Below, piece by piece: positions 2,756-45,674 of a DNA stretch of 64,000 bases. The number at the start of each line of letters is the position of its first letter. The stretch's first letter is position 1. The stretch comes from a virus: positions 1 to 64,000 of IMG/VR virus record IMGVR_UViG_3300020202_000062; one strand, written 5' to 3'. Below the pieces are notes generated by a model. The model did no database searches and was not told the origin of the DNA. It was given only the letters and a program-made list of their open reading frames with translations. The translations under genes and the position numbers were made by a program.

Positions 2756-3764
2756 CGTAGGTGTTACAGCAGGCAAGTTCTATCCACCACACATGGGTCA
2801 TCACGGGTTGATTGATGAACTTTCCAGTCAGTGCGACGTTGGCTATGTTCTTGTTGTTTATCGCCATGACGAGAAGCCCGATATAGACCTTCGTCTCAAG
2901 TGGCTAGAGACTGAGCACGCGGGTCAAGGTAACCTAGTCTTCATCCCCGTGTCTGACATTCCTGGGCATGATGATGATTCAGTCGCATGGGCTAGGTATA
3001 CTCGCGAAGTTCTTCCTGAAGGAATTGCAATCGATGCGGTGTTCACTTCCGAGAACTATGGTGACACATGGGCAGCCGAACTGGGCTGCAAGCATGTCCA
3101 GTTTGATCTAGCGCGTGAGTCTTGGCCGGTGTCAGGGACTGCCGTTCGACTCGATCCTTATTCTAACTGGGAGTACCTCGGTTGGGATGCGAGACAGTAC
3201 TACGCCATGCGAGTCTGTATCGTAGGTGGCGAGTCAGTGGGCAAGTCAACAATGACTGAGCGCCTAGCAAAATACTTCCGAACCAAGAGTGTTGAGGAGT
3301 ATGGTCGCACCTATGTCGAGCGGCATGGAGTAGACCCTAAGGATCCAGTCATATGGCCTGCGATCCTACACAACCAGCCTCGCCTAGAAGATGAGGCTGC
3401 CTATGCCTCCAATGGTCTGGTGTTCTGCGATACAGACCTGATCACCACCATGATTTGGTATGAGCGTTGGGTGCACGACGGTAAGCAATTGTCGGCAGAA
3501 AAAGATCCCATGTATTGGGCTATCTATCGAGAGGCTGCGCGCCGCAGGTACGATCTTTACATCCTACTTCACCACGAAGATACAGACTGGGTGCAGGATG
3601 GGACCAGAACTGAGTCGGAACATCGCGCTTGGTTCACCAATCGAATCAAAGAAGAACTACTCTTTCACGCATGTCCACTCCGAGAAATCAAGGGTGGAAC
3701 ATGGGATGAGAAGTTCGAAGAAGCAAAGAACTACGTCTTTAGCAAATGGAAGATGCCACGATGA
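2739..3764 (+). CDS. nadR: NadR-type NMN adenylyltransferase / ribosylnicotinamide kinase
   Basis: GKFYPPHMGH (HxGH), VSGTAVR, P-loop GGESVGKST, EYGR, FCDTD, WVQDGTR; no HTH domain. Confidence 0.93.
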   Translation: MPKPYNVGVTAGKFYPPHMGHHGLIDELSSQCDVGYVLVVYRHDEKPDIDLRLKWLETEHAGQGNLVFIPVSDIPGHDDDSVAWARYTREVLPEGIAIDAVFTSENYGDTWAAELGCKHVQFDLARESWPVSGTAVRLDPYSNWEYLGWDARQYYAMRVCIVGGESVGKSTMTERLAKYFRTKSVEEYGRTYVERHGVDPKDPVIWPAILHNQPRLEDEAAYASNGLVFCDTDLITTMIWYERWVHDGKQLSAEKDPMYWAIYREAARRRYDLYILLHHEDTDWVQDGTRTESEHRAWFTNRIKEELLFHACPLREIKGGTWDEKFEEAKNYVFSKWKMPR

Positions 3765-9860: not shown

Positions 9861-9932
9861 GCACCTCTAGCTCAATGGCAGAGCTACGGACTTTTAATCC
9901 GTTGGTTCTGGGTTCGAATCCCAGGGGGTGTA
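9861..9932 (+). tRNA. tRNA-Lys(TTT)
   Basis: ACGGA-CTTTTAA-TCCGT; cloverleaf. Confidence 0.93.
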
Positions 9933-9935
9933 CTT

Positions 9936-11217: not shown

Positions 11218-11592
11218 GGGGCCGACAGGCATCGACTTCGGTAAACTGAGTATCGATTTGCAACCCGAGTTCGTTGACAGACTCGTTAAACAGTTGACAA
11301 AAAACAAATGCAGATGAGAACCTGCTAGTTGCTGCCTAGTCTTCGGATTAGTAAACAGTAACTCTGTTAGTCCAAGAGACCGAACGGGGCTTGATCCAAA
11401 TGCCTGGCAACAGAATTGGATTTGACAAGCGGGAAAGACCCTTGACTCTGAGGAAAAGACTCCAGTGACTTCTAGGAATGAGACTAGACGAACGAGACCC
11501 GCTCGGTGCTAGCGTCAAGGCAGAACTCGGGAATGGTTGTATCGGAAAGATATGATGGCCGAAACACGGGGGTTCGATTCCCCCCGGCTCCA
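11218..11592 (+). ncRNA. ssrA: tmRNA
   Basis: GGGGCCG/CGGCTCC-A acceptor with G3:U70; T arm; tag ORF 11310-11339 ADENLLVAA*. Confidence 0.95.
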
Positions 11593-11595
11593 CTT

Positions 11596-19910: not shown

Positions 19911-20336
19911 ATGAGTGGTTACACCGATACTCGTCCAGAGGATAGCGGAGTGATAGAAACGTTCACCTTTTCAACCAAGTTGATTCCAGATACTAAGGCA
20001 AACATTGACCTTCAATTAGAAGCGTTAAATGCTCGCCTTGAGAACCTGGTAGACAAGTGTAAGGTAGACTATCAAGACGGTAGGTACCCAATTCTCGCGA
20101 AAATCTTGGATGTAAGTCGCGATCGCACCGAACTGGAGCGCCTATCAAAGGGGCTCCAGATCGTGGCGTCGTTCATCGAAGAGTTTGACGTACTTCGTGA
20201 GCGACAGAATGTATTAGCAATGGCCCAGAAGGATCCAGGTTGGTTCGCTGCTGCCTTTGGCGACTTTGATAAAGACATCAACCATTTTCTAGATGTCATA
20301 ACTCAAGATGATGAGACTTTAACTAGCGAGGAATAG
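19911..20336 (+). CDS. hypothetical protein, first gene of the Ubl operon
   Basis: TAGTG-coupled to the E2 gene. Confidence 0.7.
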   Translation: MSGYTDTRPEDSGVIETFTFSTKLIPDTKANIDLQLEALNARLENLVDKCKVDYQDGRYPILAKILDVSRDRTELERLSKGLQIVASFIEEFDVLRERQNVLAMAQKDPGWFAAAFGDFDKDINHFLDVITQDDETLTSEE

Positions 20337-21892
20337 TGAAAACTGAGATCGTACTAGGTGCTGATGGCGTCCGTAAGGATGTCGACATGGGCACGGTGTC
20401 ACAGAGTGACTTCCGCGACATGGCCAGCACCTATAAGGAACTTTCAAAGATTGCTCTCTTCGATACTGGTATCCTACCCTTGCTAGGATCAGGTGTCCTA
20501 GCAATCCGCCATTGCCTCAATCATACACAGATTGTAGTCCAGCATGCTCCTGGAAAATACTACATCAACTGGTGTGACAACGAAGGTGATGAAGATGTAC
20601 AGACATACTACTTGGCTCAGCCATGGCGTATCGTTATCGGTGATATCAAGGACGACGAACTCTTAGGTGCTCGTACCTTCTATTCGCCTCACCCAATCCA
20701 GACATTAGAGCAGCCGCTCTATCACGTCAACCTACCTAACATCAACTGTGAAGGCTACGGCTATGCCTCTGAGCCTTATGGTGGGAACGGTGTAGGTTGG
20801 ATTTGCCTCTACCACACTGGTAGTTGGCACAACCTAACGATGGGTGAGAGGATCCGTGCTCTCATCGAGCGTGCCTCAGGCGTAGAAGTCTACAACGATG
20901 GCAACATGAGCGAGACAGACGGTCCTCGCTTTTACTTTAAGAACGAAAAGCCAGAATACGTTTGCTCCCCCGATGCCTGGCAGAAGAAGTCAGATGAAGA
21001 AGGATTTGAGTGGACGCTGGATGAGGATCTTTGGATTCCTGTCCTGGTTACTGGACGAGACAAGCAAGATCGGCACGACCCTGAGGGTGTACCGCTGACT
21101 CTAGAGATGGCAATGTATGGTGGCTATCGTGCGTACTACGAGGAGAATCTAGTACCGAAGCCAGTCAATGCATTTGGCCGCGACGATCTAGAGAATCCAA
21201 CGGGCAAGGAACTATTCAAGCATATCTCAAGCGCAGTATCCAAGGCGAACATCGCAACAACTGGACCCGTCAAGCCACAGGTAGTCGCGGTAGAGGAAGT
21301 TCTAGCAGAGAACATCTGCAAGTGCTGCGAAGAAGACGAAATTGATGACTACGACTTTGTTGTCATCCATGATGGCACTAAGATCTGCTCCAGATGTGCG
21401 AACGAAGGTTGCTACGTACCTTGCGAAGAGTGCCATGACTACTTCCACTACAAGTCTGCTAAGCCCTTCAGTGAGGATGAAGAACTCTGGGCGTGTAATG
21501 ATCACGCACACCTATTAGACACATGCTCTGGCTGTGGTGCATACTGGTGGAAGAATCCAGGTGCTGGAATTGATGACTGGAGACACTGCATAGACTGTGC
21601 CGTTCCTGTCGACTGTTCAAGCTGCGGTAACGTCGTTGCTGATTGTGATATCATCGTTGTAGAGGCTAAGGCTTCTCCAGACGATGAGCACACAATGGAG
21701 TTCTCTCTCTGTCACTCCTGTGCAGGTAGCACTAAGACCTGTGCATGTAATGTCTTGGTCAACGCCAAAGACACCGGCCCACTAAACGGCCTGTCGGTAT
21801 GTCAGCCATGCGTCGTGAATGACGATGAAGGCATCCCTTCTTATGTCCCACAGTCTGCCGTGAATGTCACGTTGACTACTACTACTTCCTAA
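20336..21892 (+). CDS. prokaryotic E2-like (Prok-E2_D type) protein fused to zinc-finger repeats
   Basis: LAQPW, LYHVNLPNINC...GWICL; about ten CxxC/CxxH pairs in the C-terminal part. Confidence 0.7.
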   Translation: MKTEIVLGADGVRKDVDMGTVSQSDFRDMASTYKELSKIALFDTGILPLLGSGVLAIRHCLNHTQIVVQHAPGKYYINWCDNEGDEDVQTYYLAQPWRIVIGDIKDDELLGARTFYSPHPIQTLEQPLYHVNLPNINCEGYGYASEPYGGNGVGWICLYHTGSWHNLTMGERIRALIERASGVEVYNDGNMSETDGPRFYFKNEKPEYVCSPDAWQKKSDEEGFEWTLDEDLWIPVLVTGRDKQDRHDPEGVPLTLEMAMYGGYRAYYEENLVPKPVNAFGRDDLENPTGKELFKHISSAVSKANIATTGPVKPQVVAVEEVLAENICKCCEEDEIDDYDFVVIHDGTKICSRCANEGCYVPCEECHDYFHYKSAKPFSEDEELWACNDHAHLLDTCSGCGAYWWKNPGAGIDDWRHCIDCAVPVDCSSCGNVVADCDIIVVEAKASPDDEHTMEFSLCHSCAGSTKTCACNVLVNAKDTGPLNGLSVCQPCVVNDDEGIPSYVPQSAVNVTLTTTTS

Positions 21893-21903
21893 GGATCATT
21901 TAA

Positions 21904-23133
21904 GTGAGTGAACCATTCGTAGCAGTTCCCATGGAGGAACTCAATTACTTCTGGGTCATCGAAGATGAGGTACCTTGCTTCATCGGTGACGTAGAAGACA
22001 TCACCAAGCACGCCGACACCTACGGTTATGAGATCTACTACGTTCTCGCTAACCGTGAGGTGACTACGAAGGGGGCAAACAATGTCGTCCATACTTCGTA
22101 CGAGCCAAGCACCTGGAAGGTTATCAACACCTTTGTCGGTCGCGCCATAGTCCCAGCAGATGGTGAAATCGCTCTTACTACTCTTGAGACCAACGCATGG
22201 TACAGCCTGCCGAAGATCCCGTGGGAACTAGTTCAGCGCATCGACACATTCTTCCGTGCAGTTGACAAGAAGCACTCGACTGAGTCTATTGTCATCCTCA
22301 CCTTTGATTCGACTAAGGACGATTCATCTGGTTGGGGTGTCTTGGTACCAAACCAGGAGAACTCAGCCGTAGATTGTGATTACGATCCCACCAGTGTGGC
22401 CGAGGCTAAGTCTGAGGCTGGCGAGCACATCAACATCGTAGGCTCAGTACATAGCCATCCCGATATGTCAGCCTATGCATCACACACTGACCACAAGGAT
22501 CAGGCCACCTTCCCTGGTATTCACATCACGCACGGCTGGTCTAACAAGACCGGTGGCGTTACTGAATACCACATCGAGTTCATGATGGGTGGTTACACCT
22601 GGGAGTTCAAGCCAGAGCAGGTATTCGCCAACATGCCACAGCCCGAGATCGTCGTAGACGAAGAGATCGAGGAGTGGATGTCTAAGGTGAAGCCAGCGAC
22701 GAAGACCTTCCCAAAAGCTGGGAGTGGCACCTTTGGCTCGACTTCTAGCCCTGGCGGCCACTCTTCGGGCTCTGGTAACGCTGCGCTAACTCGCATCACG
22801 TTACCCTCCGATGCTCCTAGCCTTGATGATACGATCATCATTGGTGAGATTGCTAGGGACTCGCGTAACTGCTTGCTTTGTGATGGGCTACTAATCGGTC
22901 CAGAACTGGACAAGCGTCGTTGCTTGTCTTGCCACTCGTATCTGCTTCTCCCAGAAGAGACCATCGCCAACCTCCTTGAGGTTCAGGCTGAGTATAAACT
23001 CTTCGCATGGGAGATCGATCCTAGCCAGAAGCCAGATAAGGCTATTGTCATTTGGCGGAAGACCGAGGATGGCAAGAACGTATACGAGAATGTCTACACT
23101 CCTGAATCTGAGTCAACCCTGGGAAAATCCTAA
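21904..23133 (+). CDS. JAB/MPN+ metallo-isopeptidase
   Basis: E...VGSVHSHPDMSAYASHTD (HxH-x7-S-x2-D). Confidence 0.9.
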   Translation: MSEPFVAVPMEELNYFWVIEDEVPCFIGDVEDITKHADTYGYEIYYVLANREVTTKGANNVVHTSYEPSTWKVINTFVGRAIVPADGEIALTTLETNAWYSLPKIPWELVQRIDTFFRAVDKKHSTESIVILTFDSTKDDSSGWGVLVPNQENSAVDCDYDPTSVAEAKSEAGEHINIVGSVHSHPDMSAYASHTDHKDQATFPGIHITHGWSNKTGGVTEYHIEFMMGGYTWEFKPEQVFANMPQPEIVVDEEIEEWMSKVKPATKTFPKAGSGTFGSTSSPGGHSSGSGNAALTRITLPSDAPSLDDTIIIGEIARDSRNCLLCDGLLIGPELDKRRCLSCHSYLLLPEETIANLLEVQAEYKLFAWEIDPSQKPDKAIVIWRKTEDGKNVYENVYTPESESTLGKS

Positions 23134-23777
23134 GGTGGCTCTCTAGGACAGGTGGATCCTCCGAGGGTCGGGAATATCTTTCCGGTCCCGGAGGGTCTAT
23201 CCTAGACGTAGGCTTCTGCGTAGAGTGCGGCGAACTGACCGAAGGTGATGGTCCAGAAGACAGTCTATGCCCTAGTTGCTGGAAAGAACTACGCCCAGCA
23301 CAAGAAGCATTTGATTGGGAGTTTCAGTGCGATGAATGTCAAGAGCCTGTGGAGTTTGCTTCACTTCTCTGTCGCTCATGCAAGTATGTATTCCCAACTG
23401 ACCACTGGACTGGTTGGACTAACCTTAGTGCAGAGGCAGTAAGACAAGCAGAGCCACCTCCCTTCGAAATAGATCCATCAGAGATCTACGACTATATGTT
23501 GTGCTGTAACGAGTCCCAGTGGGATTGTCAGTGCGAAGGCAGACAGAAGATCTCCTGGGATATGCGGAATGATGTTCCCAGAGAAGTCATGCAGAGTGCA
23601 TACAAACTAAACTCCAGTTGTATGGGGTGCGAGTTCTACTACACCCCAGCCTGCATGCCCTTCCGTGCCTGGATAAAGAACACATTGCTCACCGGCGAAG
23701 TCGGTGTACAAATCACTACTTGTAGCGCCTTCAAAGCAGATGAGACCTATGGTGCATATGCTTTTGAGTATGTATAA
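23121..23777 (+). CDS. Cys-rich extension of JAB reached by -1 frameshift at GGGAAAA
   Basis: -1 frame is open from 23121 to 23777 with no ATG/GTG/TTG before 23349; CVEC, CPSC, CDEC, CRSC. Confidence 0.75.
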   Translation, partial: GKILRWLSRTGGSSEGREYLSGPGGSILDVGFCVECGELTEGDGPEDSLCPSCWKELRPAQEAFDWEFQCDECQEPVEFASLLCRSCKYVFPTDHWTGWTNLSAEAVRQAEPPPFEIDPSEIYDYMLCCNESQWDCQCEGRQKISWDMRNDVPREVMQSAYKLNSSCMGCEFYYTPACMPFRAWIKNTLLTGEVGVQITTCSAFKADETYGAYAFEYV

Positions 23778-23814: not shown

Positions 23815-24585
23815 ATGCGCGATCCCTATCGTACCATTGTGGTAGGTTGTGGGGGTATCGGCACCTGGCTGATCGAAGGTCTGTGTCGACAGATCTCAGC
23901 ATCAGCCCCTGGTTCTGGCATCATCCTAATTGACGGCGATTCATTCGAAGAGAAGAATCGTGAGCGTCAGTTGTTCAATGGTGCTGGCAACAAGGCAGTG
24001 GTGCTTGCCCGAAACCTCACACCACAATTCCAGAACCTCATGATCGTTGGTCAGCCCTGGTGGGTTGTCGGTGGTGAGGTATCTGGTGAGCCTGAAGAGG
24101 CATCAGATGACGGGACCGTGGTGACACGAGTACCTGCCAAGAAGATTCTTCAGAACGGCGATGTAGTCTATGCTGTTGTCGACAACAACGCAGCACGTAA
24201 GGTGTTGCTTGAAGCGGCAATGGAGATCGACAACATTGATGTGTTCTGTGCCGGTAATGATGACATGTACTACGGTTCAGTCTATCACTACCAGAGGCGA
24301 GATGGCCGTGACATCACGGTCAATCCGCTAGAAAATCACCCGGAGTATGCTGATCCTCAGGATCGGAACCCCGGTGAAATGAGTTGCCAGGAGCGCGCTG
24401 AACTAGATAGTGGTACTCAGCTCGTGGCAACCAACATGGCCGTTGCGGCTTGGCTGCTCGGTCGTAATCATAAGAGCATTCTTATGGGTGACGAACCGGA
24501 TGTGACTCAGATCTATTTCGATCTAGGTCATGGGCTAGCCCAATCGAATGATCGACGTATTGAATACGCCACAACGGCATCCTAA
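23815..24585 (+). CDS. ThiF/E1-like adenylyltransferase
   Basis: VGCGGIG, IDGD.FE.KN..RQ, NKA, VDNNAARK, putative catalytic SC. Confidence 0.92.
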   Translation: MRDPYRTIVVGCGGIGTWLIEGLCRQISASAPGSGIILIDGDSFEEKNRERQLFNGAGNKAVVLARNLTPQFQNLMIVGQPWWVVGGEVSGEPEEASDDGTVVTRVPAKKILQNGDVVYAVVDNNAARKVLLEAAMEIDNIDVFCAGNDDMYYGSVYHYQRRDGRDITVNPLENHPEYADPQDRNPGEMSCQERAELDSGTQLVATNMAVAAWLLGRNHKSILMGDEPDVTQIYFDLGHGLAQSNDRRIEYATTAS

Positions 24586-24614: not shown

Positions 24615-24875
24615 ATGGAAATGGCTTCAGGCCCTCAGAAGAAGGCCACAGCAGCAGCGGCACAGCCGACGAAGATTCAGTTCGGCTTCTTCACACTGAC
24701 TGGTAACCAGTACGCTGGCAAGACCATCGGTGAGATCCGCGCACAGCGTGGTCCAATGTGGCAGATGCCCGAAGACACCGTCGCTATGATCGGTGGTCAG
24801 AAGGTTGATGACACTCGCGTTCTAGCAGAAGGCGATCAGTTGGAGTTCCACCGCAAGGCCGGTGAGAAGGGCTAG
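24615..24875 (+). CDS. ubiquitin-like (beta-grasp) protein ending AGEKG
   Basis: GKTIGEIR...AMIGG..V....VL.EGD.LEF..KAGEKG; strong AGGAG SD. Confidence 0.85.
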   Translation: MEMASGPQKKATAAAAQPTKIQFGFFTLTGNQYAGKTIGEIRAQRGPMWQMPEDTVAMIGGQKVDDTRVLAEGDQLEFHRKAGEKG

Positions 24876-45597: not shown

Positions 45598-45669
45598 GCT
45601 TCGGTAGTTCAATGGTAGAACAGCGCCCTCTAAAAGCGTATGTTGAGGGTTCGAATCCCTTCCGAGGCG
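45598..45669 (+). tRNA. amber suppressor tRNA (CTA), tRNA-Gln-like body
   Basis: Loop CT-CTA-AA with anticodon at 45630-45632; D arm identical to tRNA-Gln(CTG) at 5283; G73. Confidence 0.85.
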
Positions 45670-45674
45670 CTCAA

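Follow-up and report, generated by a model that had tools for sequence, protein, structure and literature searches.

The gene considered here encodes a JAB/MPN+ peptidase of an uncultured virus and lies in a 64,000-nucleotide (nt) stretch of DNA, hereafter the window, which is the first 64 kb of the 158,928-bp IMG/VR virus contig IMGVR_UViG_3300020202_000062 (48% GC; CheckV completeness 75%). From the sequences of this gene and its relatives, it is very probably decoded in two ways by -1 programmed ribosomal frameshifting, with predicted isoforms of 409 and 624 amino acids (aa). Short and long JAB isoforms of this origin had been proposed in an earlier note made from the letters of the window. 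The proposal is supported by all the computational tests named for it, namely the absence of an indel, the lack of a conserved start for the downstream open reading frame (ORF), and the conservation of the site in homologs; single-ORF homologs are moreover colinear with the predicted fusion. The elements involved are as follows.

21904..23133, plus strand: JAB/MPN+ peptidase gene in the 0 frame, 409 aa, ending in ...STLGKS (ORF and Pfam match)
23121..23127, plus strand: slippery heptamer G_GGA_AAA (X_XXY_YYZ register), its GGA codon occupying the P site and its AAA codon the A site
23131..23133, plus strand: 0-frame stop TAA, one codon past the heptamer
23127..23777, plus strand: -1 frame extension of 216 codons plus stop, comprising a linker, two zinc ribbons (CVEC..CPSC and CDEC..CRSC) and a Cys-rich C-terminal domain
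23138..23226, plus strand: RNA structure predicted to stimulate the shift, consisting of a long imperfect stem-loop (core 23142-23206) with a small hairpin after it

The slippery site and the two predicted products

The 3' end of the JAB gene reads CTG GGA AAA TCC TAA and contains GGGAAAA at 23121-23127, exactly as the earlier note had stated, with GGA and AAA as 0-frame codons. GGGAAAA occurs six times in the 158.9-kb contig, and the only in-register copy within an ORF of at least 100 aa is the one at 23121-23127; since it is the sole in-register copy, the heptamer is not a chance occurrence. Both of its codons are rare in the JAB gene of the window, where GGA makes up 3 of the 43 glycine codons and AAA 6 of the 28 lysine codons. 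The comparison with the slippery site of actinophage tail assembly chaperones, made in the same note, was confirmed in the literature for TM4 (PMC4626039) and for the Microbacterium phage Bush (PMC11749239), and few heptamers are as shift-prone in E. coli as G_GGA_AAG (PMC5009743). The junction was the same in three independent assemblies, so that the assembly indel named beforehand as a refutation was not found. The same 409-aa protein was recovered from two further assemblies of different ENA samples (ERZ27257313 and ERZ27257319), on contigs of 235,865 bp and 2,382 bp, and these showed 0 mismatches to the window over the covered JAB-plus-extension region (1874 and 1761 nt). A second in-register heptamer, C_CCA_AAA (TTC CCA AAA GCT, 22710-22716), lies within the JAB coding sequence where the Gly/Ser linker begins; the -1 frame closes there after 10 codons, and chance alone would place roughly one heptamer of this kind in each gene.

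The strong hairpin reported 3' of the heptamer was reproduced as a predicted, interrupted 32-bp stem-loop. The 100 nt past the heptamer reached -48.1 kcal/mol, whereas shuffled sequences averaged -35.4 (z = -3.7), and not one of the 200 shuffled sequences was as stable. No Rfam family matched within 22900-23500.

The short product matched the Pfam profile PF14464 (Prok-JAB) with 26.7 bits at a cutoff of 25. It carries the catalytic motif E ... HxH x7 S xx D, read as HSHPDMSAYASHTD in the JAB translation, and the residues E127, H183, H185, S193, and D196 were unchanged across 28 homologs. Besides the JAB domain, the 409-aa form contains one internal zinc ribbon (C323, C326, C340, and C343) and a small beta domain.

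The open stretch of the -1 frame spans 23112 to 23777, and its first ATG/GTG/TTG codon is the GTG at 23349, corresponding to residue 75 of the extension. The motifs CVEC, CPSC, and CDEC are all encoded upstream of this GTG. These features agree with the earlier reading of an open frame devoid of an early start, and the product lengths computed from the sequence (409 aa, and 408 + 216 = 624 aa) match those it had predicted. The public gene call P0002, a 142-aa ORF at 23349-23777, starts at a GTG midway through a zinc ribbon and is almost certainly truncated.

Under the proposed mechanism, most or some ribosomes would read CTG GGA AAA TCC and stop at TAA, producing the 409-aa protein. In the remaining fraction, tRNA-Gly on GGA and tRNA-Lys on AAA would move back by one base and pair with GGG and AAA. 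This slip is probably promoted by the 32-bp stem-loop, which would slow the ribosome, and the adjacent stop, one codon on, may help by adding a pause. The shifted ribosomes would then translate 216 more codons in the -1 frame and give a 624-aa protein with two more zinc ribbons and the Cys-rich domain.

The AF2 model of the extension was of moderate confidence (mean pLDDT 72.7), with linker residues 1-26 disordered. Foldseek found nothing in the PDB at E <= 0.001, the wide VIA-align comparison gave generic zinc-ribbon matches only (Z <= 3.2; the NZF/RanBP2-type fingers at Z 2.1-2.3 were too weak to use), and the ESM Atlas returned unnamed clusters only, with scores below 0.9. All zinc-ribbon matches of the extension in Pfam were sub-threshold, no match was obtained in PHROGs or PADLOC, and a word-based protein search with the extension returned the self-match only. 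The extension may serve as a docking or targeting module, and the idea of the earlier note that the short and long forms would be an untargeted and a targeted deconjugase, made in a fixed ratio, is a reasonable possibility.

Conservation of the site and of the extension

A protein search yielded 180 relatives falling into two length classes, the closest being 40-43% identical and about 405-436 aa long (short class) and the more distant about 540-624 aa long (long class). The long-class proteins end in a Cys-rich domain, LCC..W.C.C ... C..C.(F/Y)Y.P.C.P.R, and the same domain is encoded in the -1 frame of the window. Three further proteins, P0136 (655 aa), P0147 (742 aa), and P0050, are single ORFs colinear with the predicted fusion, and P0136 and P0147 include both zinc ribbons. 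No relative was detected in a single-protein scan of IMG/VR, and blastn and tblastn searches against GenBank phages gave none either, so no cultured relative is available.

DNA was obtained for ten short-class lineages, here designated by L numbers: the window, L004, L005, L006, L007, L046, L056, L057, L058, and L061. The last of them, a relative of L007 counted as one further lineage, came from a metagenome scan, which also added L059, a locus from another sample with the same junction as L056. A zinc-ribbon match in L071 was spurious and was discarded. In all ten lineages, an in-register NNG GGA AAA ends 0 or 3 nt ahead of the stop and is accompanied by a -1 frame open for about 200-235 codons that encodes the same domains. 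The codon ahead of GGA varies (CTG, GCG, TCG, ATG, and GAG, for L, A, S, M, and E), and its third base is always G. Of 28 short-class proteins, 26 have xGK or xGKx as their C-terminus. With x-G-K given, the chance from codon usage that all ten lineages have NNG GGA AAA is about 1e-18 if they are taken as independent; as the lineages are related, this value overstates their independence and is an upper bound on significance. Synonymous sites were saturated between most lineage pairs.

Two more lineages have other heptamers at the end of the gene, GCA_AAA_AAA_TAA in L067 and TCC_CCA_AAA_GGA_TAA in L068, and their long open -1 frames encode the zinc ribbon and the Cys-rich domain. The check in homologs suggested by the earlier note thus gave an in-register heptamer 0-3 nt before the stop in 12 lineages at about 40% protein identity, which was G_GGA_AAA in ten, A_AAA_AAA in one, and C_CCA_AAA in one. 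At a recoding site, the X_XXY_YYZ pattern is typically retained while the sequence that forms it changes.

Predicted RNA structures were more stable than shuffles at 9 of 9 folded loci (z from -1.8 to -4.9), with stems beginning 0-10 nt past the heptamer. RNAalifold analysis of a sub-clade of six sequences (L004, L056, L046, L005, L007, and L061) revealed a common 9-bp stem that starts 7 nt past the heptamer and encloses the first zinc-knuckle codons; compensatory double changes were found at 3 of its pairs.

The extension evolves as a coding sequence under purifying selection (dN/dS = 0.14 for L007 vs. L061) and has 11 invariant Cys/Trp columns across 25 sequences. An exhaustive HMMER search with the -1 product retrieved 38 relatives, among them P0136 and P0147. 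Most are annotated as short "genes", and their called starts differ widely in position along the domains, falling within the first zinc ribbon in some and within the second in others. This scatter is the behaviour that a gene caller would show where no real start exists. The first canonical start was located past the first CxxC in 6 of 6 loci checked. Independent initiation of the downstream ORF, which had been named as a refuting outcome, therefore finds no conserved start of its own in support; the first start follows the first knuckle in these six relatives, though not in L056/L059 and L058.

Other layouts in the family and rival explanations

The single-ORF genes of L064 (GCG_GGA_AAA_GCT_GA, 2556-2562), L065 (TCA_AAA_AAA_GCT_GA, about 2799-2805), and L066 (GCA_AAA_AAA_GCT_AA, about 2787-2793) keep a heptamer at the homologous site. 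Their -1 frame consists of one codon, AGC, followed by a stop, and a predicted GC-rich hairpin begins 4-6 nt downstream (z = -2.0, -3.7, and -3.0, respectively). The polarity of these genes is reversed and dnaX-like: normal decoding would give the long protein and a -1 slip the short one. The predicted -1 product of L064 ends in ...AGKS, and the 0-frame product of the window ends in ...LGKS. Because two opposite layouts would yield the same two proteins, both isoforms seem to be wanted, and selection appears to act on the combination of short and long forms, not on one of them alone.

L055 (P0006) was the sole short-class gene checked in DNA whose product is without the GK end, and it has no heptamer. 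Its -1 frame opens just 4 nt before the stop, and the downstream ORF begins with an ATG 2 nt past the stop (3752-3760), preceded by AAGGAG 14 nt upstream. Judged by this arrangement, L055 is a truly split gene.

In-register GGGAAAA was absent from all 40 distinct long-class ORFs. In the sister clade (L008-L054), an in-register A_AAA_AAA, mostly as AAA GTA AAA AAA, was present in 39 of 39 distinct long-class ORFs, located at a KVKK motif just past the catalytic domain (about codon 280-298). A run of C followed by a pairable run of G was found 4-6 nt beyond A_AAA_AAA in 35 of the 39. As CCC, GGG, and GTA are scarce elsewhere in these genes (12% of Pro, 6% of Gly, and 22% of Val codons, respectively), this sequence cassette is conserved at the nucleotide level. 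The predicted -1 product would consist of the catalytic domain and a Gly/Ser/Tyr-rich tail of 27-47 aa, often ending in YSSWY. The length of the open -1 frame was dropped as evidence for the sister clade, being not significant compared with synonymous-codon resampling (mean fraction 0.27). At the corresponding position, the window has AAG GTG AAG CCA, so the sister-clade cassette is absent from it. Taking the three layouts together (that of the window, the reversed one of L064/L065/L066, and the sister-clade cassette), we lean slightly towards the view that short and long isoforms made by -1 frameshifting are a family-wide, repeatedly re-engineered trait of the JAB of phage ubiquitin-like (Ubl) systems.

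Several points weigh against the frameshift reading of the window, in addition to the relatedness of the lineages noted above. The base of the stem in the window lies at 23138, 10 nt past the heptamer and slightly over the usual 5-9 nt, and for 4 of the 9 folded structures the gain in stability over shuffles was only modest (z about -1.8 to -2.0). As L055 shows, the C-terminal module is able to exist as a separate polypeptide. The argument from the missing start is not universal, because L056/L059 and L058 carry an in-frame ATG or GTG ahead of the first zinc knuckle. What the sequences show directly is the presence of the signals, how well these are conserved, and that the extension is constrained as a coding region; the slip, its efficiency, and the role of the extension are deduced from them.

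Organization as two separate genes, with the downstream ORF translated alone by re-initiation or from a non-canonical start and the heptamer being incidental, is realized in L055, and the upstream ATG/GTG codons of L056/L059 and L058 also speak for it, as does the resemblance of AAGGTGG at 23132-23138 in the window to a Shine-Dalgarno sequence. However, the codons 5-10 nt past AAGGTGG are TCT, AGG, and ACA, the -1 frame is without ATG, GTG, or TTG for 75 codons, and a start at GTG 23349 would remove one and a half conserved zinc ribbons. Two genes would also leave unexplained the rare GGA and AAA codons and the preceding G, kept in 10 lineages, as well as the swap to different canonical heptamers in other lineages. 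This explanation of the window is therefore considered quite improbable.

Slippage of RNA polymerase on the A run, by which some transcripts would gain or lose a base, would place the event at transcription instead of on the ribosome. There is an A run at the site, and it reaches seven residues in L065, L066, and L067, but the window and nine other lineages have just four, whereas known bacterial transcriptional slippage sites are runs of about nine. The retained X_XXY_YYZ register and a structure placed at the spacing of ribosomal frameshift sites also speak against polymerase slippage, which is regarded as highly improbable. A break caused by an indel of assembly or sequencing, or by a recent frameshift that inactivated the gene, with a single ORF as the true gene or a C-terminal part in decay, would be in line with the single ORFs of most (long-class) homologs, but it is scarcely credible given three identical independent assemblies, a break at the same heptamer position in 12 diverged lineages, and purifying selection on the extension.

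The putative conjugation cassette, known systems, and biological meaning

The JAB gene belongs to a phage gene cassette, probably one for the conjugation of a ubiquitin-like protein, with the following further members on the window; two tRNA genes that read the slippery codons are also given.

20336..21892, plus strand: Cys-rich gene, 518 aa, the upstream member of the cassette, with synteny kept in relatives
23815..24585, plus strand: ThiF/E1-like gene directly 3' of JAB (Pfam ThiF, E = 2.1e-08), syntenic in all relatives
24615..24875, plus strand: candidate ubiquitin-like protein after E1, 86 aa, with the C-terminus GEKG, which is invariant in 9 relatives
9861..9933, plus strand: tRNA-Lys(UUU), found by ARAGORN, decoding the A-site slippery codon AAA
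39621..39696, plus strand: tRNA-Gly(UCC), found by ARAGORN, decoding the P-site slippery codon GGA

The 518-aa protein had no match in Pfam, PHROG, or PADLOC, and a kinship between its zinc fingers and the -1 extension was dropped (best E = 0.15). PADLOC gave a weak match of its E1-E2 models to the ThiF/E1-like protein and left the other cassette proteins unmatched, and PHROGs returned 0 matches for every cassette protein. The 86-aa GEKG ORF had no Pfam match; its homologs were seen in L004, L055-L057, L064-L066, and L068. The Ubl candidates of L057 and L064 have 2 extra residues past the terminal Gly, and their trimming would be a plausible task for the JAB peptidase.

The contig carries 26 tRNA genes and a tmRNA (ARAGORN), and a WhiB gene recognized by its Pfam match lies just 5' of the region. 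These features fit a large, actinophage-like virus. The tmRNA gene is located at 11218-11593 and encodes the tag peptide ADENLLVAA. Given 26 tRNAs, the presence of phage decoders for both slippery codons may be a coincidence. A tRNA with the anticodon CUA (an amber reader, labelled Pyl by ARAGORN) was found at 45598-45670; it has no bearing on JAB, whose stop is TAA and whose 0 frame closes 23 codons further on in any case.

Among known systems, the G/GT tail assembly chaperone genes of phage lambda and actinophages (Levin 1993; Xu, Hendrix and Duda 2004; reviewed in PMC5009743) share the G_GGA_AAR heptamer, the position of the shift site at the extreme 3' end of the upstream ORF, and a pair of products with a common N-terminal part, of which the long form adds a C-terminal domain. 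The gene of the window differs in encoding a JAB/MPN+ peptidase of a ubiquitin-like cassette and in the long stem-loop predicted after the site, and among its homologs there are also single ORFs, the reversed layout, and a two-gene arrangement. Membership among the G/GT genes is ruled out by gene identity and neighbours, since the frameshifted gene is a JAB peptidase between a Cys-rich protein and a ThiF E1 and not a tail assembly chaperone beside a tape measure gene; it would nevertheless work like G/GT. The E. coli dnaX gene (tau/gamma; A_AAA_AAG with a 3' hairpin) follows the same logic as L064, L065, and L066. Unlike dnaX, the window has the opposite polarity and no conserved upstream Shine-Dalgarno-like stimulator, and the protein families are unrelated.

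The closest functional analogy is the arterivirus nsp2 gene, in which -2/-1 frameshifting produces nsp2, nsp2TF, and nsp2N (PMC7939443): these are likewise isoforms of a viral deubiquitinase-type protease with a common catalytic domain and differing C-terminal parts. Arteriviruses, however, are animal RNA viruses whose protease is papain-like and of the OTU type, an RNA-bound protein instead of a hairpin stimulates their shift, and there is no homology. With the prokaryotic E1-E2-JAB-Ubl cassettes (Iyer, Burroughs and Aravind 2006, PMC1779556; Bil-type, PMC10557695; CBASS Cap2/Cap3, PMC10097602), the window shares a JAB gene beside a ThiF-type E1 and a small Gly-ending protein, and the JAMM residues are intact in the phage JAB. 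It differs from them in being encoded by a large phage and in that the JAB has zinc ribbons and a Cys-rich C-terminal domain without a Pfam, PHROG, PADLOC, or PDB match.

The mechanism itself, canonical -1 frameshifting, is already known; it is the gene family that is new for it. A literature search found, in the searchable papers, no frameshift report for a JAB/JAMM gene or for a prokaryotic or phage ubiquitin-like cassette. Annotated frameshifts of tailed phages lie almost exclusively in tail assembly chaperone genes, which account for 2397 of 2476 cases in the SEA-PHAGES genomes (PMC10885494), and the known range of phage frameshifting is widened here by a well-supported case in an enzyme of a ubiquitin-like cassette common to many uncultured large phages. 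For annotation, the current calls of a 409-aa JAB and a truncated 142-aa ORF need to be corrected, and the same mistake is present in dozens of metagenomic entries. That the family interchanges three layouts, namely a fused gene with a reverse shift, a forward shift, and split genes, argues for a need for both isoforms, and the gene offers a handle on how a phage controls the removal of its own protein tag. If the family-wide reading is true, the short-to-long ratio would be a tuned parameter of protein-tag writing and erasing during infection.

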